The notes below the pieces were generated by a model. It had not been told where the DNA came from, made no database searches, and saw nothing but the letters and a program-made list of their open reading frames with translations. Source: Eubacteriales bacterium (lineage in GTDB: Bacteria; Bacillota; Clostridia; Oscillospirales; CAG-272). Taken from it: DNA of 53,126 nt. Below are positions 29,943-53,126 of the stretch, piece by piece; within the stretch, counting starts at the first letter, position 1; each line of letters starts with the position of its first letter. Both the position numbers and the translations under genes were made by a program. The DNA lies in the NCBI GenBank assembly GCA_051867915.1, contig JBJDZJ010000096.1, positions 1 to 53,126 of the forward strand, given 5' to 3'.

Positions 29943-30030
29943 GCGGATAGAGAAATGTCCGATGTTTTCGGACAAAGACCGATTTGCAAGAAAAAATTTC
30001 GATTTGACCCCATCTATTTTTGAAAAAAAC

Positions 30031-30059
30031 TTGCTTTTTTCGCAGTTGTGTGCTATACT
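30031..30059 (+). promoter_or_regulatory. Promoter TTGCTT-17 nt-TATACT for the GH43-HAD gene
   Basis: -35 at 30031-30036, -10 at 30054-30059; 35 nt upstream of ATG 30094. Confidence 0.5.
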
Positions 30060-30093
30060 AATCCACGGTATGAAAAAAAGAGGAGAATGGTTC

Positions 30094-31773: not shown

Positions 31774-31803
31774 TCTCTTCCTGAAGAAAGGAATTTCAAT
31801 ATT

Positions 31804-33009: not shown

Positions 33010-33074
33010 AAATTGCATCAAAGAACCCTTCCAACAACGAAAACGGAATTTATTTGAAAGGTTGGTATATAAAA

Positions 33075-33446
33075 ATGGAAAAAATCTACACGCCCGACGC
33101 CCCTGCGGCCATCGGACCCTATTCACAGGCAGTCAAGGTGGGCGGTCTGGTCTTCACCTCGGGACAGATTGCCATCAATCCCGCAACCGGTAATGTGGAG
33201 GCCACTACCATCGAGGGGCAGACCGAGCAGATCTGCAAGAATCTTGCCGCCGTCCTCAAAGAGGCGGGAAGCTCCCTTGAAAAAGTCATTAAGACCACCT
33301 GTTTCCTGGCGAATATGGGCGATTTTGCCGCATTCAACGCTGTTTACGGCAGCTATTTCACCGAAAAGCCCGCCCGTTCCTGCGTGGCAGTCAAGACCCT
33401 GCCCAAGAATGTGCTGGCAGAGGTCGAGGTTATCGCCGAACTGTAA
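33075..33446 (+). CDS. ridA: RidA (YjgF/TdcF) reactive enamine/imine deaminase
   Basis: Part of ORF 32904..33446. 'MEKIYTPDAPAAIGPYSQAVKVGGLVFTSGQIAINPATG...ARSCVAVKTLPKNVLAEVEVIAEL'. Confidence 0.9.
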   Translation: MEKIYTPDAPAAIGPYSQAVKVGGLVFTSGQIAINPATGNVEATTIEGQTEQICKNLAAVLKEAGSSLEKVIKTTCFLANMGDFAAFNAVYGSYFTEKPARSCVAVKTLPKNVLAEVEVIAEL

Positions 33447-33501
33447 TTTTGCCTTGTCTTTCGGCAATTTCGCCAAACCGAAGGATGTTTCAGATGAAAA
33501 C

Positions 33502-33537
33502 AATTGTCAACCTGTTTTTGAAAATAGGTTGACAATT
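33502..33537. promoter_or_regulatory. BirA-type operator (bioO-like inverted repeat); may double as the ridA terminator hairpin
   Basis: AATTGTCAACCT (33502-33513) pairs with AGGTTGACAATT (33526-33537). The core is TGTCAACC-N14-GGTTGACA. The right half-site contains the -35 TTGACA of the bioY promoter. A T-run follows at 33538-33545. Confidence 0.65.
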
Positions 33538-33557
33538 TCTTTTTTGTGTGCTATAAT
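33529..33557 (+). promoter_or_regulatory. Consensus promoter TTGACA-17 nt-TATAAT (extended TGCTATAAT) for bioY
   Basis: -35 at 33529-33534, -10 at 33552-33557. Confidence 0.7.
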
Positions 33558-33826
33558 AGTCGCATGAAGAACATCGAAGCCGAATAACACCGAGCGACTA
33601 TTAGGAAAATAGATCTTGCCGGCTTGCGCCGTCATTTTCCCTGAGAATTCAGGGAAAAACGATCCATTTTCCAAAGCTGGATGCTATGATAGTCGCATGA
33701 AGAACATCGAAGCCGAATAACACCGAGCGACTATTAGGAAAATAGATCTTGCCGGCTTGCGCCGTCATTTTCCCTGAGAATTCAGGGAAAAACGATCCAT
33801 TTTCCAAAGCCGGATGTTATAATAGG
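33549..33826 (+). repeat. Tandem direct repeat, 2 x 133 bp plus about 12 bp of a third unit, forming the bioY leader
   Basis: Copy 1 is 33549-33681 and copy 2 is 33682-33814. By eye they differ at only two positions: TATAAT versus TATGAT, and AAGCTGG versus AAGCCGG. Each unit starts with TGNTATRAT. Confidence 0.9.
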
Positions 33827-33864
33827 AGCGTAAAAACCTTATAGAAAAGAAAGAGGAAAAGAAA

Positions 33865-34407
33865 ATGAGTCTGAAAAAACACAAATCCGTTTTAAATCTG
33901 GTGTACATTGCCCTGTTCGCCGCACTGATTGCCGTATGCAGCTGGATCACCTTCCCCATCAATCTGGTTCCCATTACCCTGCAAACCATGGCGGTCTGTA
34001 TTGCCGCAGGAATGTTGGGCTGTTGGAGGGGAATCTGTTCGGTCGCCGTTTATCTGGCACTGGGCGCAGTGGGACTACCTGTATTCGCAGGCTTCAAAGG
34101 CGGCATCGGTAGTCTGACCGGCGCCACGGGAGGCTATCTGGTGGGCTTTTTGCTGACCGCCCTGATTGTGGGACTGGCAGTGGATCTGTTCGGACGGAAA
34201 TGGTTCGTTCTGGCAATTTCCATGGTTCTGGGTATTGCGGTCTGCTACCTTTTCGGAACGGCATGGTTCATGATTCTGATGGGAAGCAAATACACCCTGG
34301 GCGCTGCTCTCGGAATGTGTGTGATTCCCTTCATCATCCCCGATCTTTGCAAGATCGCCATCGCTACCGTTCTGTGCAACAGGGTATATAAGATTGTGAA
34401 GATTTGA
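33865..34407 (+). CDS. bioY: Biotin transporter S-component BioY
   Basis: 'LVYIALFAALIAVCSWITFPI..VPITLQTMAVCIAAGMLG...GPTGGYLVGFLL'-type pattern, seen here as 'LTGATGGYLVGFLLTAL'. 180 aa with 5-6 TM helices. Confidence 0.9.
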   Translation: MSLKKHKSVLNLVYIALFAALIAVCSWITFPINLVPITLQTMAVCIAAGMLGCWRGICSVAVYLALGAVGLPVFAGFKGGIGSLTGATGGYLVGFLLTALIVGLAVDLFGRKWFVLAISMVLGIAVCYLFGTAWFMILMGSKYTLGAALGMCVIPFIIPDLCKIAIATVLCNRVYKIVKI

Positions 34408-34449
34408 CGGGTTGTATCCGGACTGTTTCGGACTGAGTTCCGTAATCGG

Positions 34450-34489
34450 CGGGGCTGTCGCAAATGGTGATTTGCGACAGCCCCGTTTT
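34450..34489 (+). terminator. Intrinsic terminator of bioY
   Basis: CGGGGCTGTCGCAAAT-GGTG-ATTTGCGACAGCCCCG followed by TTTT. Confidence 0.75.
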
Positions 34490-34528
34490 GTAAAATATGA
34501 AAAAAAGGGAAATCTTTTTGCAAATTGC

Positions 34529-34557
34529 TTGACAATGAAGGTGAAATGTGCTATGAT
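34529..34557 (+). promoter_or_regulatory. Promoter TTGACA-17 nt-TATGAT
   Basis: -35 at 34529-34534, -10 at 34552-34557. Followed by a ~140-nt leader before ATG 34707. Confidence 0.55.
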
Positions 34558-34706
34558 GGGAATGCGATACAGAGGTCGGGATACATCCGTCATTGGAGAG
34601 GATGCCGACACATTCTGATCGGATTTTGTCAGGTCTGTCTCGGAATCTGCCGCATTCGTACAGCGGCATATTGCAAAGGCGACTGTAAGAAAGGCTTGGA
34701 TTTTCA

Positions 34707-34889
34707 ATGATGAATGGGAAAGAAAGACTTCTCTGTCTGCTGCTGTGCGCCCTGACGGCGCTGATCCTCGTCTCCTGTCAGCCCAAAAAGAGCGAGGAAG
34801 ACACGAGCGGCACCGATACAAAGGCGGCATCCATTTCGCTGGGTGAAGGTCCCGGCGGTCTTGACGAAATACCGTGGGAAGACGGTTGA
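34707..34889 (+). CDS. Small (60-aa) putative lipoprotein
   Basis: 'MMNGKERLLCLLLCALTALILVSCQPKK' is a signal peptide plus lipobox. It has its own promoter and a 17-bp hairpin at 34899-34936. The Shine-Dalgarno is weak. Confidence 0.45.
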   Translation: MMNGKERLLCLLLCALTALILVSCQPKKSEEDTSGTDTKAASISLGEGPGGLDEIPWEDG

Positions 34890-34975
34890 TCGACTTGATT
34901 TTTGCCGCATTTTCCGTAGGGAAAATGCGGCAAAAATGCAATATCCACACAAAATAAGAACAAGAAAGGATCATT

Positions 34976-36343
34976 ATGATGAAACAAACACTGAAAACAC
35001 TGCTGATTTGCGCATTGGCAACGGCTCTTCTGGTATCCTGCGGCAAAAAAACGAACGGAGAAGATGAAAGTAAGAATACTTCCGAATCGGCTTCTTCCGT
35101 AACGACATCATCCGAGACGACATCATCCGCAACGACTTCTTCGTCAACTACCGCTCCCAATCCCACATTGCCTGATATTGATACCGTAAAAACGCCCGAG
35201 CAGATCTATGCGGAAATTGAGGCGGCAAAGGGCAATATGAAGTTTGAAATGTCTGTCGAGATGAAGGGGGATATGTCCAGTACGGTCAGCTACACGACCT
35301 TGTTTGACGGTGGCAAGATCTATCTCAGCACTGCGGCAGATTTCTTCGGTATGACCTTTACCGATGAGAGCTACCTTGTCAAGGAGACCGCCGGATATAC
35401 CTATTATTATATCGGAGAGGACGAGAGCTGGTACCGTTACTCCTTTGAAGAGGATGAGGAGATTACAAGTGCCTTCACTTTCGATTTCGAAGATTTCTCC
35501 GCCTATTTGAAATCTGAAAATTACGGCGCGTTTGACAGCGCAACCAACCGTTACACAATGAATGAGGGTATTGTCATTGAAGAAGTAGCGCTGAAAGACG
35601 GCTATCTGGAAATGACCGACAACGGTTTCGTTCTCTCCTTTACGGAGCTGGATGAGGACTATGGAGATACGGTTGTCATGGCGGTATTCTCTGATTTCGG
35701 TAAGGTAACGATCACGCTGCCCGAGGCGAAAGAGGAAGATCCGACCGAAGGAGAAGATTCTTATCCTTTGCAATATCCCGAAACGGCTCCCACACCCGAA
35801 GAAATTTACAATCTGATTGAAACATCCGAGAATGTCTCCTGCGACAGCTATTCCGATCTCGGTGGGATCGGAAGCATCTCCATGCAAATGGAGCAGGACG
35901 GCAACAACATCTGGATGCTGATATCCACGACCGTTCTGGGCGAGACCGTTACAGAAGAAACCTATCTGGAAAAGGACGGCGATACCGTCTATGTCTATTG
36001 GGTAGATGAAAACGGAAACTGGATCAAGGAGATTGCCGACGACGAGGATGCCGTTGACGGAAATACTTTTGATTTCGCCGATCTGCTGAAAAGCGAAAAT
36101 TTTGAAGAATACGATCCCTCTACCGGTAGCTATCAATTCGTGGAGGGCAAAACGGTGACCGTCGAAGATCTCGGAACGGTAACGGATGCGACAATTGTAT
36201 GTTATTTCGACGATTATGACGATTATTATGATATATACATGACGGTCGGCGGCGAGGACGGAATCAGCCTGACCTTCCTCTTCTCCTTCTATAACTTCGG
36301 GTATACCGAAGTTGTGCTTCCCGACGCAAACTCCAAGGGCTAA
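34976..36343 (+). CDS. Lipoprotein with an internally duplicated domain, function unknown
   Basis: Lipobox 'LLVSCGKK' and a Ser/Thr linker. Two homologous halves: 'TPEQIYAEIEAAKGNMKFEMSV...FTFDFEDFSAYLKSENYGAFDSATNRYTMNEG' versus 'TPEEIYNLIETSENVSCDSYSD...NTFDFADLLKSENFEEYDPSTGSYQFVEG'. Confidence 0.7.
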   Translation: MMKQTLKTLLICALATALLVSCGKKTNGEDESKNTSESASSVTTSSETTSSATTSSSTTAPNPTLPDIDTVKTPEQIYAEIEAAKGNMKFEMSVEMKGDMSSTVSYTTLFDGGKIYLSTAADFFGMTFTDESYLVKETAGYTYYYIGEDESWYRYSFEEDEEITSAFTFDFEDFSAYLKSENYGAFDSATNRYTMNEGIVIEEVALKDGYLEMTDNGFVLSFTELDEDYGDTVVMAVFSDFGKVTITLPEAKEEDPTEGEDSYPLQYPETAPTPEEIYNLIETSENVSCDSYSDLGGIGSISMQMEQDGNNIWMLISTTVLGETVTEETYLEKDGDTVYVYWVDENGNWIKEIADDEDAVDGNTFDFADLLKSENFEEYDPSTGSYQFVEGKTVTVEDLGTVTDATIVCYFDDYDDYYDIYMTVGGEDGISLTFLFSFYNFGYTEVVLPDANSKG

Positions 36344-36384
36344 GCCGAACCCGAATCTGTCAAATCGAAGATGTCAAAAAATAC

Positions 36385-36425
36385 CCGTGGCTGTCTCAAA
36401 TAACTTGAGACAGCCACGGATTTTT
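36385..36425. terminator. Bidirectional terminator
   Basis: CCGTGGCTGTCTCAA-ATAAC-TTGAGACAGCCACGG followed by ATTTTT. Confidence 0.7.
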
Positions 36426-36429
36426 CCGT

Positions 36430-36810
36430 TTATTTCCGACCGTCGGACCGCCTTCTTCGGCGGTCGGGGACAGAAGGATTCTCTTCGATCTGCCTGGCGG
36501 TCAGGGCGATAATCAGTTTCCGATCGTCGGGAACATTCCCCTCCAGCGCCGCCTTGTTCCGGCGAAGCTCACCGCATTTCCGGCATCGGTGAAGGATGAT
36601 GTAGCCTTTTTTGGCGTCCGGCAAAGCCGAAATCGGCTCCAGAAGTCCTCCGCAGTCGTTGGCACGGTCGCCGGGGAGAATGTCCACATGGAGCGACCAA
36701 AGACAATAGGGGCAGTGATTTCTCGAGGTTTTCACCAGCGGAGGAACCTCTCTTTTGCAATGAAGGCAGATAAATCCATTGTCGTTTTTGGAAAAACGCT
36801 TGGTCTCCAT
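36430..36810 (-). CDS. RNHCP-domain protein
   Basis: 'FICLHCKREVPPLVKTSRNHCPYCLWSLHVD...HRCRKCGE' contains the literal RNHCP motif and Cys pairs. Confidence 0.75.
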   Translation of the reverse strand: METKRFSKNDNGFICLHCKREVPPLVKTSRNHCPYCLWSLHVDILPGDRANDCGGLLEPISALPDAKKGYIILHRCRKCGELRRNKAALEGNVPDDRKLIIALTARQIEENPSVPDRRRRRSDGRK

Positions 36811-43235: not shown

Positions 43236-45851
43236 ATGGAGAACAAGTACACGATTGTCGATAGCGTTGAGTCCTTTGAGATTGCCCTTGCAAAGGTCAG
43301 AGAGGCTCAGAAAATCTATGCGACCTATACCCAGGAGCAGGTTGATAAGATTTTCTATGCGGCAAGCGTAGCGGCCAATCAGGCGAGAATTCCCCTTGCC
43401 AAGATGGCAGTTGCCGAGACCGGAATGGGCGTTGCAGAGGATAAGGTGATCAAGAATCATTTCGCATCCGAGTATATCTACAATTACTACAAGGATATGA
43501 AGACCTGCGGCATCATCGAAGAGGATAAGGCGTTCGGCATCACCAAGATTGCAGAGCCGATCGGTGTTGTTGCTGCCGTCATCCCCACCACCAATCCCAC
43601 CTCTACCGCCATCTTCAAGACCCTGATCTCCCTGAAGACCCGGAACGGCATCCTGATTTCCCCCCATCCCCGTGCCAAGAAGTGCACCATCGAGGCGGCG
43701 AAGATCGTTCTTGAGGCGGCAGTCAAGGCAGGCGCACCCGAGGGGCTGATCAGCTGGATTGATGTGCCCTCTCTTGAACTGACCAACCTGCTTATGAAGG
43801 AAGCCGACATTATTCTGGCAACCGGTGGCCCCGGAATGGTCAAGGCGGCTTATTCCTCCGGAACTCCCGCATTGGGCGTCGGCGCAGGCAATACCCCTGC
43901 CATCATCGACAGTACCGCCAATGTTAAGGTAGCCGTCAACTCGGTGATCCACTCCAAGACCTTCGATAACGGCATGATCTGTGCATCCGAGCAGTCGGTC
44001 ATCGTCCTTCCCGAAGTTTATGACGCTGTAAAAGCAGAATTTGCCGCAAGAGGCTGTTATTTCCTGAACCCCGAGGAGACCGAGAAGGTTCGCAAGACCA
44101 TCATTATCAACGGCTCCGTCAATGCAAAGATCGTCGGACAGACCGCCTATACCATTGCCAAGATCGCCGGCGTTGAGGTTCCCGAAAGAACCAAGATCCT
44201 CATCGGCGAGGTGGAATCGGTGGACATTTCCGAGGAGTTCGCTCACGAGAAGCTGTCTCCCGTTCTGGCCATGTATCATGCAGACGATTTTGCGGACGCT
44301 CTTGCCAAGGCAGAGCATCTGGTTCACGACGGCGGCATGGGTCACACCGCCTGCCTCTACTGCGATGCAGTCTCCGAGCGTGCCAAGATCGACGAGTTCG
44401 CTCTCCGTATGCCCAACTGCCGTATGCTGATCAACACCCCTGCATCTCAGGGTGCCATCGGCGACATTTACAACTTCAAGTTCGCTCCCTCCCTGACGCT
44501 GGGATGCGGATCTTACGGCAGAAACAGCGTTTCCGAAAATGTGGGCTGCAAGCATCTTCTGAACATCAAGACGCTTGCCGAGAGGAGAGAAAATATGCTT
44601 TGGTTCCGTGCGCCTGAAAAGGTTTATATCAAGAAGGGCTGCCTGCCCGTTGCACTCGACGAGCTGAAGGCCGTCATGGGCAAGAAGAGAGCCTTCATCG
44701 TCACCGACTCCTTCCTGTACAACAACGGTTACACCAAGCCCATCGAGTCCAAGCTGGATGATATGGGTATCATGCACACCACCTTCTCCAATGTTGCTCC
44801 CGACCCCTCCCTTGCCTGCGCTAAGGAAGGTGCGGCTCTTATGAGCGCATTCAAGCCCGATACCATCATCGCCATCGGCGGCGGTTCTGCAATGGATGCC
44901 GCAAAGATCATGTGGGTTCTCTATGAACATCCCGAAGTTGACTTCTTCGATATGGCAATGCGCTTCATGGACATCCGCAAGCGTGTCTATACCTTCCCCA
45001 AGATGGGCGAAAAGGCATATTTCATCGCCATCCCCACCTCCGCAGGTACCGGCTCCGAGGTAACTCCCTTTGCGGTTATCACCGATCAGGATACCGGCGT
45101 GAAGTATCCTCTTGCCGACTATGAGCTGATGCCCAACATGGCAATTGTGGATGCAGACATGATGATGTCCGCTCCCAAGGGTCTGACCAGTGCATCGGGT
45201 ATCGACGCTGTTTCCCACGACCTTGAGGCCATCGCATCGGTAATGGCAACCGATTATACCGACGGTCTGGCTAAGCAGTCGCTGAAGATGATCTTCGACT
45301 ACCTGCCCGCCGCATATGACAACGGTCCTCACGATCCCGTTGCCCGTGAGAAGATGGCAAATGCCGCAACCATGGCAGGTATGGCGTTCGCAAACGCATT
45401 CCTGGGTGTCTGCCACTCCATGGCGCACAAGCTGGGTGCCTTCCATCATCTGCCCCACGGTGTTGCCAATGCGCTGATGCTGGATGAGGTCATCCGCTTC
45501 AACTCGGCAGAAGTCCCCACCAAGATGGGTACCTTCCCCCAGTACGAATATCCTCACACCAAGGCGAAGTATGCGGAAGTTGCTACCTACCTGGGACTTT
45601 CCGGCAATACCGACGATGAGAAGGTGGAGAGCCTGATCGCCGCTCTCGACGAGCTGAAGGCAAAGATCGGCATCAAGCCCACCATCAAGGATTATGTTCC
45701 CGATGAGGCAGACTTCCTGGCGCGTCTGGACGCCATGGTCGAACAGGCATTTGACGATCAGTGCACAGGCGCCAACCCCCGTTACCCTCTCATGAGTGAG
45801 ATCAAGCAAATGTACCTGAACGCTTACTACGGAACTCACGAGGAAGTATAA
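43236..45851 (+). CDS. adhE: Bifunctional acetaldehyde-CoA / alcohol dehydrogenase AdhE
   Basis: ORF 43197..45851. The N-terminal ALDH half and C-terminal Fe-ADH half ('GGGSAMDAAK', 'HSMAHKLGAFHHLPHG', 'FDDQCTGANPRYPL') are unmistakable. ATG 43236 is preferred, with GGAGGAG 9 nt upstream. Confidence 0.95.
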   Translation: MENKYTIVDSVESFEIALAKVREAQKIYATYTQEQVDKIFYAASVAANQARIPLAKMAVAETGMGVAEDKVIKNHFASEYIYNYYKDMKTCGIIEEDKAFGITKIAEPIGVVAAVIPTTNPTSTAIFKTLISLKTRNGILISPHPRAKKCTIEAAKIVLEAAVKAGAPEGLISWIDVPSLELTNLLMKEADIILATGGPGMVKAAYSSGTPALGVGAGNTPAIIDSTANVKVAVNSVIHSKTFDNGMICASEQSVIVLPEVYDAVKAEFAARGCYFLNPEETEKVRKTIIINGSVNAKIVGQTAYTIAKIAGVEVPERTKILIGEVESVDISEEFAHEKLSPVLAMYHADDFADALAKAEHLVHDGGMGHTACLYCDAVSERAKIDEFALRMPNCRMLINTPASQGAIGDIYNFKFAPSLTLGCGSYGRNSVSENVGCKHLLNIKTLAERRENMLWFRAPEKVYIKKGCLPVALDELKAVMGKKRAFIVTDSFLYNNGYTKPIESKLDDMGIMHTTFSNVAPDPSLACAKEGAALMSAFKPDTIIAIGGGSAMDAAKIMWVLYEHPEVDFFDMAMRFMDIRKRVYTFPKMGEKAYFIAIPTSAGTGSEVTPFAVITDQDTGVKYPLADYELMPNMAIVDADMMMSAPKGLTSASGIDAVSHDLEAIASVMATDYTDGLAKQSLKMIFDYLPAAYDNGPHDPVAREKMANAATMAGMAFANAFLGVCHSMAHKLGAFHHLPHGVANALMLDEVIRFNSAEVPTKMGTFPQYEYPHTKAKYAEVATYLGLSGNTDDEKVESLIAALDELKAKIGIKPTIKDYVPDEADFLARLDAMVEQAFDDQCTGANPRYPLMSEIKQMYLNAYYGTHEEV

Positions 45852-46233
45852 CTGATTTTATGGCAAAAGGAAGGGGGGTGCGCCGCGCCAACCCCCGCTA
45901 CCCCTTGATGAGCGAAATCAAGTAAATGTACCTGAACGCATACTATGGCACTCACGAGGAAGTATAACTGATTTTATGGCAAAAGGAAGGGGGTTGCGCC
46001 GCGCCAACCCCCGCTACCCCCTGATGAGCGAAATCAAGCAGATGTACCTGAACGCTTACTACGGCAAGCATGAGGAAGTATAAAAATAACAAAAATCAGC
46101 GACCCGGTCAAGGGTCGCTGATTTTTGAAAATAAGGAAGGGGGTTGCGCCGCGCCAACCCCCGTTACCCTCTCATGAGCGAAATCAAGCAAATGTATCTG
46201 AACGCTTACTATGGCACTCACGAGAAAGTGTAA
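45852..46233 (+). repeat. Three tandem, diverged copies (A, B, C) of the last ~80 bp of adhE, each preceded by an AAGGAAGGGGG(T/G)TGCGCCGC hairpin arm
   Basis: Copy A is 45869-45967 with an in-frame TAA at 45923. Copy B is 45985-46083 and is intact; with ATG 45976 it gives a 35-codon ORF MAKGRGLRRANPRYPLMSEIKQMYLNAYYGKHEEV. Copy C is 46135-46233. The stop codons of the native end, A and B lie exactly 116 bp apart (45851, 45967, 46083). Confidence 0.9.
46091..46126 (+). terminator. Intrinsic terminator after adhE-tail copy B
   Basis: AAAAATCAGCGACCC-GGTCAA-GGGTCGCTGATTTTT. Confidence 0.7.
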
Positions 46234-46501
46234 TTGATAATCTCCAAAAACAGCGGGTGAAGACCGTTGTTTTTAGGGCAAGATGAAGGGGCAAAGGGAA
46301 GCCCTGTTGCCGCCGCAAGATGAGCCTCATGGTGCCGATAGTTATTGTTTTCAACTCGCAGTGAGCTTACACAACTGCGAGTTGCTTTTGTTGACAACAA
46401 AAAGTGGTTGCTTTTTTGGTAAAAATAGTAGATAATCAAGATGAAAACAATTATGTTATTGTGCAAATAAGAAAAATAAATGCAGATAAAGGAGAGAACA
46501 T

Positions 46502-48085
46502 ATGGAGCTTAAATTGCAGATTGCCAAACTTCGTTCGGGAGCGGGCATGTCGCAGGAAGAACTTGCGGCACTGTTGGGCGTTTCAAGGCAGGCTGTTCAG
46601 AAATGGGAAAGTGGAGGAGCGGTTCCGAGACTTGATCATCTTATAAAAATGGCAAAGCTTTTCAGGGTTACTCTTGATTCGCTTGTGCTTGAAGGAAACA
46701 ACAGAATAACCGAGGAAATGATGCACGGAAGCAATATAGCTCCCGATTATGAGCACATGTGCTACTGGGAATCATATCCTCAGAACCTTTTGAATGAGTA
46801 CAGACAGTCAATCGAAGAGGGTAAAAACATATCAATATATGAGAAGCTTTTCAAAGCCGTGTATGAAATGCCGGCAGGAGAGCATAAAGAGAAAATGGCA
46901 GATCAGCTGTTTGATATAGTCTGCTCGGCAGGTACGGTTGAAAATTATCAGTATACCGAACCGTCGGGATATGACGAGATAAGGAAACTGTCGTCCGGCA
47001 CAACTGCCGAGATGAAAATGCCGTCCGATCACGAACTCAAGAAGAAGATAAAGGGCGCATGGCTCGGCAGAATATGCGGATGCCTGCTCGGCAAGCCGAT
47101 CGAAGGCATCCATACACCCGAATTGAAGAAACTTTTGAAAAGCTCGGATAACTATCCGCTTCACAGGTATATAACCACCGATGATGTGACGCCCGAACTT
47201 CAGAATGAGATATCGTACAGGGTGAGAAGAGACAGCCTTGTGGGTGCAATAAGCTGTGCACCTGTCGATGACGATACAAACTATACGGTTCTTGCATCTG
47301 TGATAGTTGACCGCTTCGGCAGAGATTTCAAATCCTCTGATGTTGCCAATTCGTGGGTGTGGTATCAGGGAAAAGATGCATACTGTACGGCAGAACGTGT
47401 TGCATTCAAGAATTTCGTTATGGGATACCGTCCACCGATGTCGGCTGTATACAAAAATGTTTACAGGGAATGGATAGGAGCACAGATAAGAGGGGATTAT
47501 TTCGGATATATAAATCCATGTGATCCTGCATCGGCGGCTGAAATGGCATGGCGCGATGCGTCAATATCGCATGTGAAAAACGGAATATACGGCGAAATGT
47601 TCGCATCGGCGATGATTGCGGCGGCAGCAGGCTGTAATGATATGGTTTCGGTCGTGAATGAAGGTCTTGCACAGATTCCGGTATCGTCGAGACTGTATGA
47701 ATCGGTCGGTTCGATTTTAAGCGGTTATCAGAACCGAGTTTCCAAAAGTGAGGCGTTTGCCAAAATTCATGCCGAATATGATGAATTTACAGATCACGGA
47801 TGGTGTCATACAATACCGAATGCAATGATTGTTGCGGCATCTCTCCTTTACGGTGGCGGAGATTATACCAAATCAATATGTATGGCTGTCGAAACAGGGT
47901 TTGATACAGACTGTAACGGCGCAACTGTCGGATCGGTGCTTGGAATGATGAACGGTGCCGATTCCATAGGGGCACAATGGACTGCTCCGATAAACGGGAC
48001 GCTTGATACATCTATATTCGGAGTCGGAAAGGTTAAGGTCGACGATATGGTCGAACGAACAGTAAAGCATATAAAAGCCAAATAG
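46502..48085 (+). CDS. Fusion of an XRE-type HTH DNA-binding domain with an ADP-ribosylglycohydrolase (ARH/DraG-fold) domain
   Basis: N-terminus 'LRSGAGMSQEELAALLGVSRQAVQKWESGGAVPRLDHLIKMAKLFRVTLDSLV'. ARH-type motifs 'IKGAWLGRICGCLLGKPIEG', 'PVDDDTNYTVLA', 'GFDTDCNGATVGSVLGMMNG'. AAGGAGAG Shine-Dalgarno. Confidence 0.75.
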   Translation: MELKLQIAKLRSGAGMSQEELAALLGVSRQAVQKWESGGAVPRLDHLIKMAKLFRVTLDSLVLEGNNRITEEMMHGSNIAPDYEHMCYWESYPQNLLNEYRQSIEEGKNISIYEKLFKAVYEMPAGEHKEKMADQLFDIVCSAGTVENYQYTEPSGYDEIRKLSSGTTAEMKMPSDHELKKKIKGAWLGRICGCLLGKPIEGIHTPELKKLLKSSDNYPLHRYITTDDVTPELQNEISYRVRRDSLVGAISCAPVDDDTNYTVLASVIVDRFGRDFKSSDVANSWVWYQGKDAYCTAERVAFKNFVMGYRPPMSAVYKNVYREWIGAQIRGDYFGYINPCDPASAAEMAWRDASISHVKNGIYGEMFASAMIAAAAGCNDMVSVVNEGLAQIPVSSRLYESVGSILSGYQNRVSKSEAFAKIHAEYDEFTDHGWCHTIPNAMIVAASLLYGGGDYTKSICMAVETGFDTDCNGATVGSVLGMMNGADSIGAQWTAPINGTLDTSIFGVGKVKVDDMVERTVKHIKAK

Positions 48086-48086
48086 G

Positions 48087-48135
48087 CGATTGTAAAACTG
48101 CGTTTTACAATCGGAGTGCGCAACGCACGGTTTTT
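48087..48135 (+). terminator. Two consecutive hairpins, the second with a T-run, after the HTH-ARH gene
   Basis: CGATTGTAAAAC-TGC-GTTTTACAATCG (48087-48113), then GTGCG-CAA-CGCAC followed by GGTTTTT (48116-48135). Confidence 0.6.
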
Positions 48136-48359
48136 CACGCACTTATCGTCTTCGGGTTTGGCAGCTTCAATCGGTGCGTGGACTCGCTTTGCTCGTCTTT
48201 GCGGTGTTTTTACTTATATTCGTCATGTTTACAATCGCCTCTTATACAACAAAAACGGATAAAAATCAGTAGTATATATGTTAAAAAAGCATTCTGCCGA
48301 TTGGCTTTTTTGACTTTTTTCAATCGGCCATCTAAAAGCCAAATTAAAGGAGAACCGTA

Positions 48360-48485
48360 ATGGATAAAAAACAAATTTATGTTGCCCCCGAAATTGATAT
48401 CTGTCTTGTCGAAAGCTCTGATATTGTGCTGATTTCAACTGTAGACCGGGACGGAACCCTGGGAAAAATCGGATATGATGATTAA
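48360..48485 (+). CDS. Unannotated 41-codon sORF (MDKKQIYVAPEIDICLVESSDIVLISTVDRDGTLGKIGYDD)
   Basis: AAGGAG (48347-48352) lies 7 nt before ATG 48360. The TAA at 48483-48485 is 18 nt before the ATG of the secreted ARH gene. Too short for the ORF track. Paralogous to the sORF at 51699..51812. Confidence 0.5.
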   Translation: MDKKQIYVAPEIDICLVESSDIVLISTVDRDGTLGKIGYDD

Positions 48486-48503
48486 AAAAGAGAGGTGCTT
48501 AAA

Positions 48504-51320
48504 ATGATGAAAAGAATAATTTCCGCTGTTTCGGTTGCCCTTGCACTGCTGTTGTGCCTCTCTGTTTTTCCGCTGACATTTGTTTTAAATGCAGAGGAAA
48601 ATAGATCTGCCGAAGATGTCATGCTTGTTGCCCCTTCTGCCGATCAGACAGCAAAGGGTTTCTGCCGCACCGATGTTAATCCGGAAGACGGTTCTAAAAA
48701 AGATCTTTGCATAATAATGGAAGCAAAAAGGGAAGATCTGAAGAAATATGAAAGCTGTGAGTTTTCAATAAGCTTTTCAGCCGGAGACGAAACGGTAAAA
48801 AGCAAAAATTACAGAGCGAAAATCGCATATAAATCAATAGTTGACAACCAGAGAAAATATATTGCAGCCGACGGTTGCGGACTTATTGGATGTGTAATAA
48901 CCGGAATCCCGTCATCGGTTACATCGTTTGATGCAATCGCTTGCCTTAAGAGCAGTGATAATGTCGAAACAAAAATAAATCTCGGCTCCGCAATTCTTTC
49001 AAAAGGAACGGTAACACTCACACGGGATGAAATTTATGATAAACTTCTCGGCGGCTGGCTCGGACAGATGATAGGAGTTTCATGGGGGGCATCGACCGAA
49101 TTCGGATATTGCGGAGAAATTATTCCCGAAAACAGAATACCGAAGTGGAAGCCGTCAATGATAAACGATGCTTTTGCACAGGACGATCTTTATGTCGAAA
49201 TCCCGTTCATGGAAGTGATGAAGAAAAACGGTGTTGATTGCGATGTCAACCTTATTGCCGATAATTTTGCAAAATCGGAGTTCCCGCTTTGGCATGCAAA
49301 CTATCAGGCAAGACTGAATCTTCAGAACGGCATAAAGTATCCCGATTCGGGCAGTCCGAAATACAATATACATGCAGATGACATAGATTGGCAGATAGAA
49401 GCCGATTTCCTCGGAATGATTTATCCCGGACTTGTCAACAGAGCGGCGGAACGTTCATTTGAACTCGGTCACATCATGAATTACGGAGACGGAGTGTACG
49501 GAGGCGTTTTTGTAAGCGCACTTCATTCGGCAGCTTATACCGCAAGAACTCTTGATGAGGTCATTCAGGCAGGACTTGATGCCATTCCGGACGGGACTCT
49601 TTTCAAGGAAACGCTTCTTGATGTTGTAAACGGCTATAATAACGGCGAGAGTTGGGAGGATGTCTGGAAAACGCTCGAAAACAAGTGGGCGGATACCGAT
49701 AAATGCACAGAGTGTGCAGGTCCTATCAATATAGATGCAAAGCTGAACAGCGCATATGTGCTGATCGGACTTCTTTACGGTGCCGGAAACCTTGAAAAAA
49801 CAATAATCATATCAACAAGATGCGGTCAGGACAGTGACTGCAATCCGTCGACGGCGGCATCGGTTCTTTGTAATTTTCTCGGTGCGTCCGCAATTCCCGA
49901 TAAATATAAATCGGCTGTTGACATGGTCAATACAAAATTCCAGACTACCGATTATTCTCTCGGAGAGATAATTGACCTTTCAATGCAGCTTATAAGTGAA
50001 ACGGTGTCGGCATCCGGCGGAAGGGTAAAAGAAAATGATTATACTCTCGTTGTGTCGGATGAAATAAATGCAACTCCTTTTGAACAGTGGGAAGGCGGAA
50101 TCGGAGTACAGCTTTTGGTAAATGTTACAAGCGGGTGCGCAGTAAATATCAGATTCGAATCGGCAGGAGCCGAAAAGATCAAAAAAGTAACATATGATAT
50201 GGGTGACGGCTTCGTAACAAGCGAAAATCTTTGCATGTACGGTTATTCGAAACCCGGAACATACAGGATTACCTGTGAGGTAGAGGGAGAAGAAGGAACA
50301 AAACTCACGCTTGAAACTACCATAACGCTTGAATCGGAGCTTTCGGGAATAAAATATAATCCGATTTGTTCTGTCGATGCGCCTTTGGGAAGCGGAAATA
50401 AAGATATGCATGTTTTCTGCGACGGTGTAATTCCTTCAACAACAGATACATCTTCCGCATTGCAGTACGATACCTATTGCGGCGGAGGAGAGATGGACAG
50501 CCTTTATGTCGGAATGGAATTTGACAAAACAGTTTCGCTGACAGGAGTTAAGTTTACCGAGGGTCTGCATTTCTGGGACGGTGGATGGTTTGACGGAGTT
50601 CCGAATGTAGAGCTTCTCATAGACGGTAAATGGGTTGAAGTTGCAACATATAACGACGGAAAGGAATATCCTGATAAAAACAGCATGACTGCACACGGAT
50701 TGCCGTTTGAAAGCTATGTGTTCAGATTTGAAAAAACCACAGAGTGTGACGGGGTGCGCTTTAAGGGCAAACCCGGAGGAAGTGCACATTTTATAAGTGT
50801 TGCCGAAATAACACCGTTTACCAATGACAACAGTGTGACAGTAAAGCAAAAAACTGCAATAATCTGTTCGGTGTCGGCACCGTTGGGCGGAGGATCGAAA
50901 GATATAGGCGTTATTTGTGACGGAATTGTTCCGGATGCTTCATCTGCGAACGATTTGATGCAGTACGACACCTATATCGGAGAAACTGCTGATGCATTTG
51001 CATATGTCGGATATCTGTTTGTGGCAGAACGAAATCTTTCGGGAATTGTGTTTGCGGAAGGCAATCATTTCAATAACGGCGGATGGTTCAAAAACGGCGA
51101 CATAAAAGTACAGATTCTTACCGACGAAGGATGGGTGGATGTGCTGTGCGACGGCATTGACCGATATCCTGTCGGTGACAGCAGGGATGTTTTCGGATCC
51201 GGCTACCAGAGCTATACCTTCAGGTTGAAGGAACCGGTATCTTGCAGAGGAATACGCATTGCCGGAACAACCGGAGGATGCGGTTTCATAAGTGTAAGCG
51301 AGTTGACTGTTATCGACTGA
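48504..51320 (+). CDS. Secreted multidomain protein: unknown N-domain, ADP-ribosylglycohydrolase-fold domain, PKD-like domain and two discoidin/CBM-like repeats
   Basis: ORF 48495..51320. ATG 48504 has AGAGAGG 8 nt upstream. Signal peptide MMKRIISAVSVALALLLCLSVFPLTFVLNA. ARH motifs 'LLGGWLGQMIGVSWGASTEFG', 'AQDDLYVEIPFM', 'RCGQDSDCNPSTAASVLCNFLG'. PKD-like 'VTYDMGDGFVTSENLCMYGYSKPGTYRITCEV'. Duplicated 'ICSV(D/S)APLG(S/G)G(N/S)KD..V.CDG(V/I)(I/V)P...QYDTY.G' modules. Confidence 0.75.
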   Translation: MMKRIISAVSVALALLLCLSVFPLTFVLNAEENRSAEDVMLVAPSADQTAKGFCRTDVNPEDGSKKDLCIIMEAKREDLKKYESCEFSISFSAGDETVKSKNYRAKIAYKSIVDNQRKYIAADGCGLIGCVITGIPSSVTSFDAIACLKSSDNVETKINLGSAILSKGTVTLTRDEIYDKLLGGWLGQMIGVSWGASTEFGYCGEIIPENRIPKWKPSMINDAFAQDDLYVEIPFMEVMKKNGVDCDVNLIADNFAKSEFPLWHANYQARLNLQNGIKYPDSGSPKYNIHADDIDWQIEADFLGMIYPGLVNRAAERSFELGHIMNYGDGVYGGVFVSALHSAAYTARTLDEVIQAGLDAIPDGTLFKETLLDVVNGYNNGESWEDVWKTLENKWADTDKCTECAGPINIDAKLNSAYVLIGLLYGAGNLEKTIIISTRCGQDSDCNPSTAASVLCNFLGASAIPDKYKSAVDMVNTKFQTTDYSLGEIIDLSMQLISETVSASGGRVKENDYTLVVSDEINATPFEQWEGGIGVQLLVNVTSGCAVNIRFESAGAEKIKKVTYDMGDGFVTSENLCMYGYSKPGTYRITCEVEGEEGTKLTLETTITLESELSGIKYNPICSVDAPLGSGNKDMHVFCDGVIPSTTDTSSALQYDTYCGGGEMDSLYVGMEFDKTVSLTGVKFTEGLHFWDGGWFDGVPNVELLIDGKWVEVATYNDGKEYPDKNSMTAHGLPFESYVFRFEKTTECDGVRFKGKPGGSAHFISVAEITPFTNDNSVTVKQKTAIICSVSAPLGGGSKDIGVICDGIVPDASSANDLMQYDTYIGETADAFAYVGYLFVAERNLSGIVFAEGNHFNNGGWFKNGDIKVQILTDEGWVDVLCDGIDRYPVGDSRDVFGSGYQSYTFRLKEPVSCRGIRIAGTTGGCGFISVSELTVID

Positions 51321-51355
51321 ATACCGATTTGCGATATCCGTTTATACAGACAAAT

Positions 51356-51648: not shown

Positions 51649-51651
51649 CTT

Positions 51652-51683
51652 CAAATCCCCCACTTTTGACAGTGGGGGATTTG
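51652..51683. terminator. Bidirectional terminator
   Basis: CAAATCCCCCAC-TTTTGACA-GTGGGGGATTTG, then AGATATTTTT. Lies between adhE-tail copy D (plus strand) and sORF 51699..51812 (minus strand). Confidence 0.7.
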
Positions 51684-51698
51684 AGATATTTTTATCTA

Positions 51699-51812
51699 TT
51701 ACCAATTAGGGTTCCAGGGGATGTCCTCCACTTCGCCGGATGTAAGCAGAACATCGGCGCTGTCGGTCAGGAGGATCTCCGCCTTCGGAGATTCGTAGAG
51801 TTCCTTTTCCAT
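51699..51812 (-). CDS. Unannotated 37-codon sORF (MEKELYESPKAEILLTDSADVLLTSGEVEDIPWNPNW)
   Basis: GGAGG (51821-51825, minus strand) lies 8 nt before ATG 51812, which is 14 nt after the LRR-gene stop. TAA at 51699-51701. Shares M-(D/E)-K-x(1-2)-(I/L)-Y-x2-P-x6-7-(S)-x-D-(I/V)-(V/L)-L-x-S with the sORF at 48360..48485. Confidence 0.5.
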   Translation of the reverse strand: MEKELYESPKAEILLTDSADVLLTSGEVEDIPWNPNW

Positions 51813-51826
51813 CTTTCTTACCTCCT

Positions 51827-53126
51827 TTACTGCTGGGGTGCGACGGCGTCGTAGTCGAACTGCGTTGCGGCGATCACAGAACCGTCGGCGGAAGTGACGG
51901 TCAGGGTCGCTGTGTCAAATCCGTCCGCCGGAATGTCGGTAACGACAAAGCCGAACAGGGTGCAGGACTCGCCGGCAACATAGGTCTCTCCTGCCGCAAT
52001 CAGACTGGTATAGATCTTCATGGTTTTGCCTTCCACATAGTCGGTATCAACCGTACGGGTGATGGTGTAGGGCGTTGCATTCCCGTCCTTGTAGAAGTTC
52101 AGCGTGACCTTGTCGCCTGCCCTGACAGCGTCATTCTCGGCAAGGATGATGCGCAGATCAAAGGAACCGTCCTCGTGCGTGCGGTTGCTGGAATAGGCGG
52201 AGAGATCGCCTTCTGCAACGGAGATGGTGTTGTAGGTAGTACCGTTACCCGCTTCCTCTTCGGTGATTTCGGCACGGTCAAACCCGGGCAGTGCAACGAA
52301 GGGATTGCCGTTTACATTGGCATAGTCTTCGGCAGTCGATCCGGCGAAGCCGTAGATGGTGGTGGCAGAGGGAATGGAATAATTGCTAATAGAACAAATG
52401 GGGTTATAAACTGTAATGCTGTCTAAGTTGGTACAGCCATCGAATGCCCCATAGCCAATCTGGGTAACACTGTCGGGAATGGTGACACTTGTCAAACCGG
52501 AGCAGCCATAGAATGAACTAAAGCTAATAGAGGTGACGCTGTCGGGGATGGTGATACTCGTCAAACCGGAACAGTTATAGAATGCAGAACCGCCAATCAC
52601 GGTGATGCTGTTGGAGATAGTGATGCTCGTCAAACCTGTACAGTCTTCGAATGCCGCATAGCCAATCTCGGAGACGCTGTCGGGAATGGTGATGCTCGTC
52701 AAGCCGGAACAGCCATAGAATGCAGAGTCGCCAATAGATGTAACGCTACCGTCCGTCGGAATGATACTGTTTTGGCATCCGAGAATCAATTTCTTGTTTT
52801 CGGTATCAATGAGACAGTTTCCGCTACTGTGGTAGGTTGTGTTGCCTTCCGATACGGTGATACCCGTCAAGCTGGAGCAACCATGGAATGCGAAATCACC
52901 AATCACGGTAACGCTGCCCGGAATGGTGATACTCGCCAAGCCGGAACAGTTAGAGAATGCAGAATCGCCAATAGAGGTAACACTGTCGGGAATGGTGATA
53001 CTCGTCAGACCTGCACAGTCTGCGAATGCACCAAAGCCAATTTCGGTGACACTACCGTCCGTCGGAATGACACTGTTTTGGCATCCGAGAATCAATTTCT
53101 TGTTTTCGGTATCAATGAGACAGTTT
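51827..53126 (-). CDS. BspA-type leucine-rich-repeat surface protein (C-terminal part; the 5' end lies beyond the window)
   Basis: The frame is open to the window edge. ~23-aa LRRs of the type 'IPDSVTSIGDSAFSNCSGLTSITIP' are repeated. A 306-bp super-repeat is present: 52746-52820 is nearly identical to 53052-53126. The C-terminal ~150 aa are non-LRR. Confidence 0.8.
   Translation of the reverse strand, partial: NCLIDTENKKLILGCQNSVIPTDGSVTEIGFGAFADCAGLTSITIPDSVTSIGDSAFSNCSGLASITIPGSVTVIGDFAFHGCSSLTGITVSEGNTTYHSSGNCLIDTENKKLILGCQNSIIPTDGSVTSIGDSAFYGCSGLTSITIPDSVSEIGYAAFEDCTGLTSITISNSITVIGGSAFYNCSGLTSITIPDSVTSISFSSFYGCSGLTSVTIPDSVTQIGYGAFDGCTNLDSITVYNPICSISNYSIPSATTIYGFAGSTAEDYANVNGNPFVALPGFDRAEITEEEAGNGTTYNTISVAEGDLSAYSSNRTHEDGSFDLRIILAENDAVRAGDKVTLNFYKDGNATPYTITRTVDTDYVEGKTMKIYTSLIAAGETYVAGESCTLFGFVVTDIPADGFDTATLTVTSADGSVIAATQFDYDAVAPQQ

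Follow-up and report, generated by a model that had tools for sequence, protein, structure and literature searches.

Two small open reading frames (sORF1 and sORF2) in a 53,126-nucleotide stretch of Eubacteriales bacterium DNA (contig JBJDZJ010000096.1, referred to here as the window) belong to a large, so far unnamed family of peptides from gut Clostridia. In 16 of 52 species-level loci from other genomes, a peptide gene of this family heads a complete cluster encoding an HprK-like kinase, a PqqD-type RRE, a SipW-like signal peptidase, an ABC exporter, and an NTP_transf_5 protein, very like the recently described "linear polyphosphorylated peptide" (LPP) pathway (Popov et al. 2026, PMC13381572). 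In the window, in contrast, both genes stand alone, each next to a gene for a large secreted protein that carries the same uncharacterized domain of about 125 residues with a predicted β-rich fold. The coordinates of these features are given in Table 1.

Table 1. Positions of the two peptide genes and associated features in the 53,126-nucleotide window
Feature	Position	Strand	Description
HTH-ARH gene	46502..48085	+	HTH_3 (XRE) plus ADP-ribosylglycohydrolase protein, 527 aa; upstream of sORF1; first gene of the low-GC three-gene module
Shine-Dalgarno site of sORF1	48347..48352	+	AAGGAG, 7 nt before the ATG
sORF1	48360..48485	+	41 codons, ATG to TAA; encodes MDKKQIYVAPEIDICLVESSDIVLISTVDRDGTLGKIGYDD; proposed leader about residues 1-19; Y7-x-x-P10-x-I12 as the RRE-binding-type motif; V17-E18-S19 at the position of the family's F-E-T; D21 and S26 at the family's conserved D and S positions; tail TVDRDGTLGKIGYDD
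ARH-PKD gene	48504..51320	+	Secreted 938-aa protein with signal peptide, companion domain, ADP-ribosylglycohydrolase, and PKD domains; ATG 18 nt after the sORF1 stop
Companion domain, N-terminal copy	48660..49001	+	aa 53-166 of the ARH-PKD protein
Predicted intrinsic terminator-like hairpin	51650..51685	-	14-15 pairs followed by a T tract; closes the LRR-sORF2 operon
sORF2	51699..51812	-	37 codons; encodes MEKELYESPKAEILLTDSADVLLTSGEVEDIPWNPNW; Y6-x-x-P9-x-A11; T16-D17-S18 at the F-E-T position; D20 and S25 at the family's conserved D and S positions; tail GEVEDIPWNPNW
Shine-Dalgarno site of sORF2	51821..51827	-	AAGGAGG, with AGGAGG 8 nt upstream of the ORF; overlaps the stop codon of the LRR gene
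LRR gene	51827..53126	-	3' part of a BspA-type LRR protein gene that runs off the window; sORF2 starts 14 nt after its stop
Companion domain, C-terminal copy	51830..52231	-	Last ~134 aa of the LRR protein; aa 298-432

We first examined whether the two sORFs are genuine and related. The first-pass annotation had described a Shine-Dalgarno-led sORF and a second sORF with a shared N-terminal pattern and diverging C termini, each attached to a gene for a large exported protein, and this observation was confirmed, with a strong Shine-Dalgarno site for each. Pairwise BLASTP gave an E value of 1e-6 over 24 residues. A motif scan of all six frames found only these two sORFs as small ORFs, and the one other match lies inside the 527-aa HTH-ARH protein. 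A six-frame profile scan had been suggested beforehand as a check, and an HMM built only from peptides that sit next to maturation clusters in other genomes picked exactly these two out of 1385 six-frame segments of the window (E = 4e-7 for sORF2 and 1.3e-4 for sORF1; next best, 0.9). The claim that the two genes lie in compositionally different DNA also holds, as sORF1 has a GC of 0.39 and a GC3 of 0.33 and sORF2 has a GC of 0.54 and a GC3 of 0.68, each matching its large neighbor gene. However, the description of the tails requires correction. Although the C-terminal tails differ between the two sORFs, each is conserved within its own subfamily, as IPW...W for sORF2 and GK(I/V)x(Y/W)(D/E)D for sORF1. 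The sORF2 subfamily relatives P0004, P0006, P0008, and P0049 (P numbers denote peptides of the family, and L numbers denote loci from other genomes) keep I-P-W and a C-terminal W.

The sORF1 gene is conserved in the syntenic locus L069, where its orthologue is intact at 41 codons with 15 synonymous and 17 nonsynonymous codon differences, plus a synonymous change of the stop codon. Y, P, DIVLIS, and GKIxYDD are kept. In L069 the orthologue starts 15 nt after the stop of the HTH-ARH gene, the C terminus of whose product is 88% identical. Identical copies of sORF1 occur in two further assemblies (L001 and L002), with the same call for the ARH-PKD gene in L001, and two public runs, one labeled pig gut metagenome, hold the locus. 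Pfam assigned ADP_ribosyl_GH to the ARH-PKD protein (2e-28), with a weak PKD_4 match below Pfam's cutoff, and LRR_5 to the LRR protein (2e-59). An Rfam scan of 45-53 kb found nothing.

Scans of both peptides against Pfam and NCBIfam gave no family, and a literature search for the sequence motifs returned nothing relevant. Word-indexed protein searches with sORF1 alone and with the two-sequence alignment returned only the window's own protein. In contrast, a full HMMER scan of 1.84e9 proteins gave 17 small-peptide hits, and a profile search gave 81. Two hits of the full scan, P0003 and P0005, are translated tandem repeats and were discarded. A scan of GTDB genomes gave 52 loci in Lachnospiraceae, Ruminococcus, Oscillospiraceae, and others, whereas a metagenome scan with the sORF2 subfamily found no relative. 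In total, the family comprises more than 140 distinct peptides of 33 to 53 aa from Lachnospiraceae, Ruminococcus, Oscillospiraceae, and Dysosmobacter, with the pattern Y-x2-P-x10-D-x4-S followed by a short acidic Gly/Pro-rich tail. We define the family by M-x-K-x-Y-E-x-P-E-x-E-[IV], D at Y+14, S at Y+19, this tail, and the lack of Cys and of a signal peptide. In 140 distinct sequences the spacing Y-x2-P-x15-S is exact, with D at +14 in 136 of 140, and Y and P are invariant in all 50 sequences of a curated alignment. Both window peptides keep Y, P, D, and S in register and match the family profile with E values of 3e-19 and 3.5e-17.

We next examined the gene neighborhoods. All five cluster genes lie downstream of the peptide gene in 16 of the 52 loci, and 27 of 52 carry at least one cluster-specific gene (kinase, RRE, signal peptidase, or NTP_transf_5), with many of the rest cut by contig ends. 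Tandem precursor arrays also occur, with six genes in L053 and three in L036. [quoted passage not shown] A profile of the peptidase family gave weak but consistent matches to SEC11 and SPase I structures. However, the kinase assignment rests on weak P-loop-level similarity to HprK, as only weak matches were obtained with its profile and single-sequence PDB searches with the kinase and the RRE found nothing. The gene order A-K-B-S-D-N is that of lppAKBSDN, but the clusters come from a divergent branch that the published work did not study. The L028 peptidase is 35% identical (1e-29) to SCH01704.1 from Ruminococcus, which falls in SSN cluster 9 of the published dataset, with its RRE classed as "other" and its precursor not determined. 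In contrast, the clostridial peptidase is only 21% identical (6e-4) to a cluster-1 LppS, and the RRE shows no pairwise similarity to an LppB.

No kinase, RRE, peptidase, exporter, or NTP-transferase homologue lies in the 53-kb window, in agreement with the first-pass annotation, and both sORFs are therefore orphan copies. The nearest relatives of both sORFs (P0002, P0004, P0049, P0025, and the Dysosmobacter set) are also orphans in the DNA available. Cluster linkage is therefore shown for the ...EDIITTS branch and not for the window's own subfamilies.

Both sORFs abut the coding region for the same domain, which lies at the C terminus of the LRR protein and at the N terminus of the ARH-PKD protein. 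The LRR copy is 49% identical (E about 1e-29) to the C terminus of the protein upstream of P0004 and matches that upstream of P0049 with an E value of about 1e-8. The ARH-PKD copy is 33% identical by BLASTP (E = 2.7e-11) to the C-terminal domain of the protein upstream of P0025 (L077), with a domain HMM E value of 1.5e-9. The domain has no Pfam or PDB sequence match. A single-sequence AF2 model predicted an all-β sandwich with a pLDDT of 62 and gave only generic Ig-like fold matches with TM below 0.5, and no fold assignment is claimed. In 36 of the fetched loci, a large secreted protein with one of two other conserved C-terminal modules immediately precedes the peptide gene, and the three kinds of terminal domain are not detectably homologous to one another. 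Tail type tracks the domain type of the neighbor, including within the single genome of L019.

The best explanation, held with moderate confidence, is that sORF1 and sORF2 are translated genes for precursor peptides of an LPP-like RiPP pathway specific to gut Clostridia. By analogy with lppAKBSDN, a discrete PqqD-type RRE would bind the N-terminal Y-x-x-P-x-hydrophobic segment as a β-strand, and the HprK-like kinase would phosphorylate a hydroxyl residue. The best candidate is the family-invariant Ser (S26 in sORF1 and S25 in sORF2). As 42 of 140 tails have no Ser or Thr, a kinase target common to the family has to lie in the conserved block. A SipW/SEC11-like signal peptidase would then remove the leader, probably after the [F/V/T]-[E/D]-[T/S] triplet (VES19 in sORF1 and TDS18 in sORF2), an MsbA-like ABC pump would export the product, and an NTP_transf_5 enzyme may decorate it further. 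For the window copies, the machinery would have to be encoded elsewhere in the genome and act in trans. Each orphan is genetically tied to a large secreted protein with the companion domain, and the short tail therefore probably works together with that protein. Our analysis establishes that the genes are real and conserved, that they belong to the family, that the family is linked to the cluster, and that the domain is shared, whereas translation, the modification chemistry, the cleavage site, RRE binding, export, maturation in trans, and any peptide-domain interaction are inferred from sequence and by analogy. The first-pass annotation had proposed leader-plus-core precursors (RiPPs or signaling propeptides) with a Y-x-x-P leader element, and the RiPP-precursor interpretation is supported at the family level. 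However, the tails are not freely variable, and the signaling alternative gets no support.

A less likely but possible alternative is that the peptides are unmodified small partners of the neighboring secreted proteins, which would bind or complete the companion domain, for example by β-strand addition, or act as an escort before export. In this view no RiPP enzymes would be needed and the cluster-linked relatives would be a specialized offshoot. The orphan status of both sORFs and their closest relatives beside the same domain, the 36 loci with a preceding large secreted protein, the correlation of tail and domain types, and the predicted β-strand preference of the conserved block, from its alternating hydrophobic/acidic pattern, are consistent with this alternative. 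However, the most conserved residues (Y, P, and a hydrophobic residue two positions on) are exactly the RRE-binding motif (PMC13381572), and large secreted proteins also precede the peptide gene in loci with the full enzyme cluster (L017, L023, L028, and L034), so the two associations are not alternatives. In addition, the peptides have no signal peptide and could not follow a Sec-exported partner without an exporter. It is unlikely that the sORFs are decaying relics left after loss of the maturation cluster, with no present function. Although there are no enzymes in the window and a leader-only truncated copy beside an intact gene in L077 indicates that decay does happen in this family, both sORFs have intact frames and strong Shine-Dalgarno sites, the sORF1 orthologue is conserved with many synonymous changes, subfamily-wide conservation extends into the tails, and the Dysosmobacter orphan is found on more than 120 contigs, always intact.

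The tight spacing to the neighbor genes might suggest that sORF1 is a cis-acting upstream ORF or translational-coupling device for the ARH gene, with sORF2 a coupling remnant and the peptide sequence irrelevant. This is improbable, as the amino acid sequence, not just the ORF, is conserved across families of bacteria, sORF2 lies downstream of its neighbor, and no Rfam element or attenuator-like structure was found. Similarly, secreted propeptides of the RRNPP or quorum-sensing type could be sensed by the XRE-type HTH-ARH protein encoded immediately upstream of sORF1 and directly adjacent in L069. This reading is also improbable, as the peptides have no hydrophobic signal segment, the regulator has no TPR receptor domain, sORF2 and most family members have no adjacent regulator, and the family is linked to RiPP enzymes instead. 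Least likely are lasso peptide precursors, despite the Y-x-x-P motif and the PqqD RRE of relatives. No macrolactam synthetase or B2 cysteine protease was seen in the window or in the cluster loci inspected, in which the extra genes are toxin-antitoxin or ATPase insertions, one radical-SAM gene, and a cohesin protein, and many tails are too short (6-13 aa) and lack a ring-forming Asp or Glu at positions 7-9.

A more speculative possibility, considered doubtful, is that gut Clostridia use a dispersed set of RiPP-type peptides as cognate partners of their giant secreted or surface proteins, with each large gene carrying its own small precursor gene. The short, modified (phospho- or nucleotidyl-) tail would be recognized by a dedicated terminal domain, namely, the companion domain in the window and two other unnamed C-terminal modules in Lachnospiraceae and Dysosmobacter. 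Small membrane-anchored PT-rich proteins end in the same tail motif (ELPFVPA; compare the DEIPWEDG lipoprotein ORF in the window) and would present the same ligand on the cell surface. This would amount to a peptide-tag/receptor-domain system for tethering or regulating surface proteins, a role not known for any RiPP.

LPP-type RiPPs were described only in 2026, in Bacilli. The present results show a large, unannotated sister family in the dominant gut Firmicutes (Lachnospiraceae, Ruminococcus, and Oscillospiraceae), give the precursor signature that the published survey left undetermined for those clusters, and show that many precursor genes are scattered orphans that gene callers mostly miss. 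The consistent pairing of each peptide gene with a large secreted protein, supported by the covariation of tail type with the neighbor's terminal domain and by the shared domain abutting both window copies, gives a concrete, testable lead to the function of this RiPP class. For annotation, two anonymous sORFs and one anonymous ~125-aa domain become named, searchable features.

The closest system is the lppAKBSDN cluster of Paenibacillus alginolyticus and other Bacilli (PMC13381572). Both have short precursors with an N-terminal M-K-K-x-Y-x-x-P-x-hydrophobic leader and a possibly corresponding [F]-E-T-like triplet and conserved Ser about 18 to 19 residues after the Tyr, one to several precursor genes per cluster, and the same enzyme set in the same order, with a discrete PqqD RRE, an archaeal/SipW-type signal peptidase, and an MsbA-like exporter. 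Discrete lasso/LPP RREs bind Y-x-x-P-x-[I/M/V/L/A], and the [Y/W]-x-x-P-x-[L/V/I/A/F] leader motif expected of an LPP precursor is present in sORF1 (Y7-V-A-P10-E-I12) and sORF2 (Y6-E-S-P9-K-A11), whereas the co-located RRE, peptidase, kinase, NTP_transf_5, and exporter are present only in relatives. The LPP cleavage triplet F-E-T is followed by x-x-S, with the phosphoacceptor at core position 3, and lies at Y+13 to Y+15 with the Ser at Y+18, whereas the clostridial family has [F/T/L/V]-[E/D/T]-[T/S/G/A] at Y+10 to Y+12 and the Ser at Y+19. A profile-profile comparison (hhalign) with published LPP precursors aligned only K-x-Y-x-x-P-x-[VIM] and was not significant. The clostridial branch also differs in that its peptidase belongs to a different sequence cluster, its RRE is not classed as an LPP RRE, its conserved block is E-D-I-I-T-T-S rather than H-Q-x-I-x-F-E-T-x-x-S, its tails are much shorter (median, 13 aa) and acidic, many copies are orphans attached to genes for large secreted proteins rather than lying in capsule loci, and its chemistry is so far inferred. 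Paeninodin-type phosphorylated lasso peptides (PMC13381572) share RRE-dependent recognition of a [Y/W]-x-x-P leader, an HprK-like kinase and a nucleotidyltransferase as tailoring enzymes, and an ABC exporter. However, no lasso cyclase or B2 protease is linked to the present family in the cluster loci inspected, its leader uses Tyr and not Trp, and its products would be linear. The prochlorosin ProcA genes served by ProcM differ in their chemistry (lanthionine), lack an RRE or signal-peptidase system, and show no systematic pairing of each precursor gene with a large secreted protein, but they likewise comprise many precursor genes with a conserved leader and divergent cores, some of which sit far from the maturation genes and are processed in trans.

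Both small ORFs named by the first-pass annotation are present exactly as it described them. sORF1 has AAGGAG 7 nt before its ATG and stops 18 nt before the start codon of the gene for a secreted ADP-ribosylglycohydrolase (ARH)-PKD protein. sORF2 has AGGAGG 8 nt before its ATG, begins 14 nt after the stop of a BspA-type LRR protein gene that runs off the window, and is followed by a 14- to 15-bp hairpin with a T-tract. The two peptides align over 24 residues with a BLASTP E value of 1e-6, and a motif scan of all six frames found no third small ORF. The claim that the two genes lie in compositionally different DNA also held. GC3 is 0.33 for sORF1 and 0.68 for sORF2, and each value matches that of the large neighbour, so the pair is not a recent local duplication. 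The low-GC module formed by the HTH_3-ARH regulator gene, sORF1 and the secreted ARH-PKD gene has a GC content of 0.44, compared to 0.52 for the rest of the window. The coordinates of these and other features are collected in the table.

Coordinates of the small ORFs and other features of the window and of related loci (L numbers denote loci carrying or related to the peptide family)
Feature	Sequence	Positions	Strand
sORF1	window	48360-48485	+
Start codon (ATG) of the secreted ARH-PKD gene	window	48504	
sORF2	window	51699-51812	-
Low-GC three-gene module	window	46200-51330	
60-codon lipoprotein-like ORF	window	34707-34889	+
Repeats of the adhE 3' end	window	45801-46238	
G+C-rich hairpins between the adhE repeats	window	45989-46012 and 46139-46162	
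Tandem duplication upstream of bioY	window	33549-33814	
Two secreted CotH-kinase-domain proteins; GH43-HAD / BioY / RNHCP gene run	window	20583-23189 (-), 25414-27867 (+), 29941-36810	
Truncated, leader-only family copy	L077	3357-3437	
Small anchored Pro/Thr/Glu-rich protein	L017	8227-8733	
Small anchored Pro/Thr/Glu-rich protein	L028	8173-8658	
Additional radical-SAM gene	L051	10076-11425	

The small ORFs are real genes under selection. The exact sORF1 peptide is also called on two contigs from other assemblies (L001 and L002), and two public runs hold the locus, one of them labelled pig gut metagenome. A diverged syntenic locus from another organism, L069, keeps the same three-gene module, with the HTH-ARH protein at 88%, a 41-codon sORF at 59%, and the secreted protein at 55% amino acid identity. 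There, the sORF starts 15 nt after the regulator gene, whereas the spacer in the window is 274 nt. The frame and length of the sORF are intact in L069, with 15 synonymous and 17 nonsynonymous codon differences, and Y, P, D-I-V-L-I-S and G-K-I-x-Y-D-D are preserved. Disruption of the frame in relatives had been set beforehand as a result that would count against the proposal, and the frame is not disrupted.

The peptides belong to a large, unnamed family for which neither Pfam nor NCBIfam has a model. A full HMMER scan of 1.84 billion representative proteins returned 17 genuine hits, all of 33 to 61 aa, and two further hits that were discarded as translated repeats. A profile search of a 5.8-billion-protein set gave 81 members, whose only source name is "hypothetical protein [Dysosmobacter sp.]". 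A scan of one genome per GTDB species gave 52 loci in Lachnospiraceae, Ruminococcus, Roseburia, Agathobacter, Oscillospiraceae, Acutalibacteraceae and others. Over 140 distinct sequences, the spacing Y-x2-P-x15-S is exact, and D at Y+14 is present in 136 of 140. The consensus is M-K-E-x-Y-E-(T/A)-P-E-M-E-(I/V)-(V/I)-x-F-E-T-E-D-I-I-T-T-S-G, followed by tails with a median length of 13 aa that are rich in G, D, E and P, with almost no Cys or basic residues. Text searches for these motifs found no paper that describes the family. Many family members (in L018, L027, L031, L032, L038, L040, L043, L048, L056 and L070 to L076) lie within a few hundred bases of a contig end, with the break inside the preceding large gene. 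These loci assemble poorly, and short-read surveys probably undercount the family.

We next examined the gene neighborhoods of the family in other genomes. Tandem arrays of precursor genes occur, with six in L053, three each in L036 and L019, and two in several other loci. In L077, a truncated, leader-only copy (MDNKKTYEAPSVEIVIVDTNDIIMIS, then a stop codon) lies directly upstream of the intact gene for the family peptide P0025, which shows local duplication and decay of precursor genes. A gene map of all loci showed a recurring downstream block encoding a ~250-aa P-loop protein, followed by proteins of ~92, ~150, ~570 and ~390 aa. In L028, these are, in order, weakly HprK-related/ScmC-like (K; 1.5e-5), PqqD (B; 2e-11), archaeal-type signal peptidase I (S; 2.5e-7), an ABC half-transporter (D), and NTP_transf_5 (N; 2e-43). 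A profile of the ~150-aa family hits SEC11 and SPase I structures. By homology counting, 16 of 52 species-level loci carry all five genes, and a further 11 carry at least one of K, B, S or N, many of them truncated by contig ends. One cluster locus, L051, carries an additional radical-SAM gene next to the NTP_transf_5 gene, which hints at extra tailoring in some lineages.

To link the window to these clusters, an HMM was built only from the 28 peptides that lie in cluster-bearing loci. Among 1385 six-frame segments of the window, it found sORF2 (E = 4e-7) and sORF1 (E = 1.3e-4), with the next hit at E = 0.9. However, the window contains no homologue of any of the five enzymes. Pfam annotation of its other genes showed glycoside hydrolases, two CotH proteins, BioY, BirA, ThyX, AdhE and similar, but no RiPP enzyme. 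The two CotH-kinase-domain proteins are secreted and carry InlB-type B-repeats, and the GH43-HAD / BioY / RNHCP gene run is syntenic with contig CAVEQV010000002.1 of GCA_963618185.1 (L008). That assembly also carries the family peptides P0025 and P0026, so it is probably from a related organism. The noncoding stretch upstream of bioY holds a perfect-register tandem duplication of a 133-nt unit (98% identical). The last 56 nt of the adhE coding sequence (IKQMYLNAYYGTHEEV, then a stop codon) is repeated four times head to tail just past the gene, at spacings of 116, 116 and 150 nt, with identical G+C-rich hairpins between copies.

Both sORFs are thus orphan precursor-type genes, and orphans are common in this family. 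The Dysosmobacter peptide P0059 is seen on more than 120 contigs, and in all loci fetched for it, it lies 13 nt after a secreted protein of 2250 to 2580 aa, with no enzymes within 8 kb. Its near relatives P0046 and P0048 show the same arrangement after proteins of up to about 3100 aa. The closest relatives of sORF2 (P0004 and P0049) and the sORF1-like P0025 likewise follow a larger gene by 1 to 124 nt.

Comparison of the neighbouring proteins revealed a feature that the first-pass annotation could not have seen. The last ~134 residues of the window's LRR protein are 49% identical (E about 1e-29) to the C-terminus of the protein upstream of P0004 and 27% identical (E about 1e-8) to that upstream of P0049. 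The same domain occurs at residues 53 to 166 of the ARH-PKD protein, just after its signal peptide, with 33% identity (E = 2.7e-11) to the C-terminal domain of the protein upstream of P0025 and an HMM E value of 1.5e-9. So sORF2 lies immediately after, and sORF1 immediately before, the coding region of one and the same ~125-aa domain. The domain has no Pfam or PDB sequence match. A single-sequence AF2 model is an all-β sandwich of only moderate confidence (pLDDT 62) and yielded generic Ig-like matches.

In Lachnospiraceae and Dysosmobacter, the preceding big proteins instead end in one of two other conserved, Pfam-less modules, and tail type follows neighbour type. Of 20 distinct tails next to module 1, 16 contain [L/T]-P-x-[V/I/M/F], whereas none of 7 tails next to module 2 do, and those are Gly/Asp-rich. 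Tails next to the window-type domain end in aromatic residues (I-P-W...W or G-K-(I/V)-x-(Y/W)). Locus L019 shows this pairing for three peptides within a single genome. In many cluster loci (L017, L028 and equivalents in about 15 loci), small signal-peptide- or lipoprotein-anchored proteins rich in Pro/Thr/Glu are encoded right after the peptide, between the precursor gene and the kinase gene. They end in (I/V)ELPF(V/I)PA(D/E/F), the same motif as many precursor tails. The motif is ELPFVPA in most of these, but in L059 both the protein and the tail carry DLLPxD instead. The window's lipoprotein-like ORF (beginning MMNGKERLLCLLLCALTALILVSC) resembles the small anchored proteins in Lachnospiraceae loci whose C-termini copy the peptide tail (ELPFVPA). 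It ends in GGLDEIPWEDG, which echoes the sORF2 tail EVEDIPWNPNW, although its Shine-Dalgarno site is weak, and a hairpin follows it.

The first-pass annotation had put forward, as a hypothesis, that the two peptides are leader-plus-core precursors (RiPPs or signalling pro-peptides), and the RiPP-precursor interpretation is supported at the level of the family. For the two orphan copies, it remains an inference in which we have moderate confidence. Our analysis establishes that the genes are real, that they belong to the family, that the family is linked to an LPP-like enzyme set which the window lacks, and that both sORFs share the same neighbour domain. The mechanism is inferred by analogy with the system described in PMC13381572. 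In this view, the RRE would bind Y-x-x-P-x-Φ, a conserved hydroxyl would be phosphorylated, the signal-peptidase-like enzyme would cut after the [F/V/T]-[E/D]-[T/S] triplet, and an ABC pump would export the product. The invariant Ser is the best candidate for phosphorylation, because 42 of 140 tails contain no Ser or Thr. It is more speculative that the tail acts together with the terminal domain of the neighbouring protein. The genetic pairing with large secreted proteins is unexpected and consistent, and it is the most interesting lead.

Among other explanations, the main rival is that the peptides are unmodified partner proteins of the secreted neighbour, which we consider possible but unlikely. 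A decaying relic is unlikely given the pattern of conservation. A purely cis-acting uORF does not explain the family-wide amino acid conservation or the downstream position of sORF2. A quorum-type pro-peptide lacks a signal sequence and a TPR receptor, and a lasso precursor lacks the cyclase and the B2 protease, neither of which was seen in the window or in the cluster loci inspected.

The gene set and the A-K-B-S-D-N order (A being the precursor gene) are those of the lpp cluster reported in May 2026 for "linear polyphosphorylated peptides" (LPP) (PMC13381572). In that system, the RRE LppB binds a Y-x-x-P leader, LppK polyphosphorylates Ser3 of the core, the SipW-like LppS cleaves after F-E-T only when LppB presents the substrate, and LppD exports the product, while the role of LppN is unknown. 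The L028 peptidase is 35% identical (1e-29) to SCH01704.1 from Ruminococcus, which appears in Supplementary Data 1 of that paper in SSN cluster 9, with its RRE classed as "other" and the LPP precursor "ND". In contrast, the L028 peptidase is only 21% identical (6e-4) to a cluster-1 LppS, and the RRE shows no pairwise similarity to an LppB. The published LPP precursors resemble this family in the start M-K-K-x-Y-x-x-P, an F-E-T-like triplet, and a Ser 18 to 19 residues after the Tyr. The triplet position is Y+10 to Y+12 in this family, where the window peptides have V-E-S and T-D-S, but Y+13 to Y+15 in the LPP precursors, and the Ser lies at Y+19 and Y+18, respectively. However, hhalign aligned only the YxxP segment, and not significantly. 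The main text of the paper does not mention Clostridia. The family is therefore best described as the previously undetermined precursor of a divergent Clostridial sister of the LPP system.
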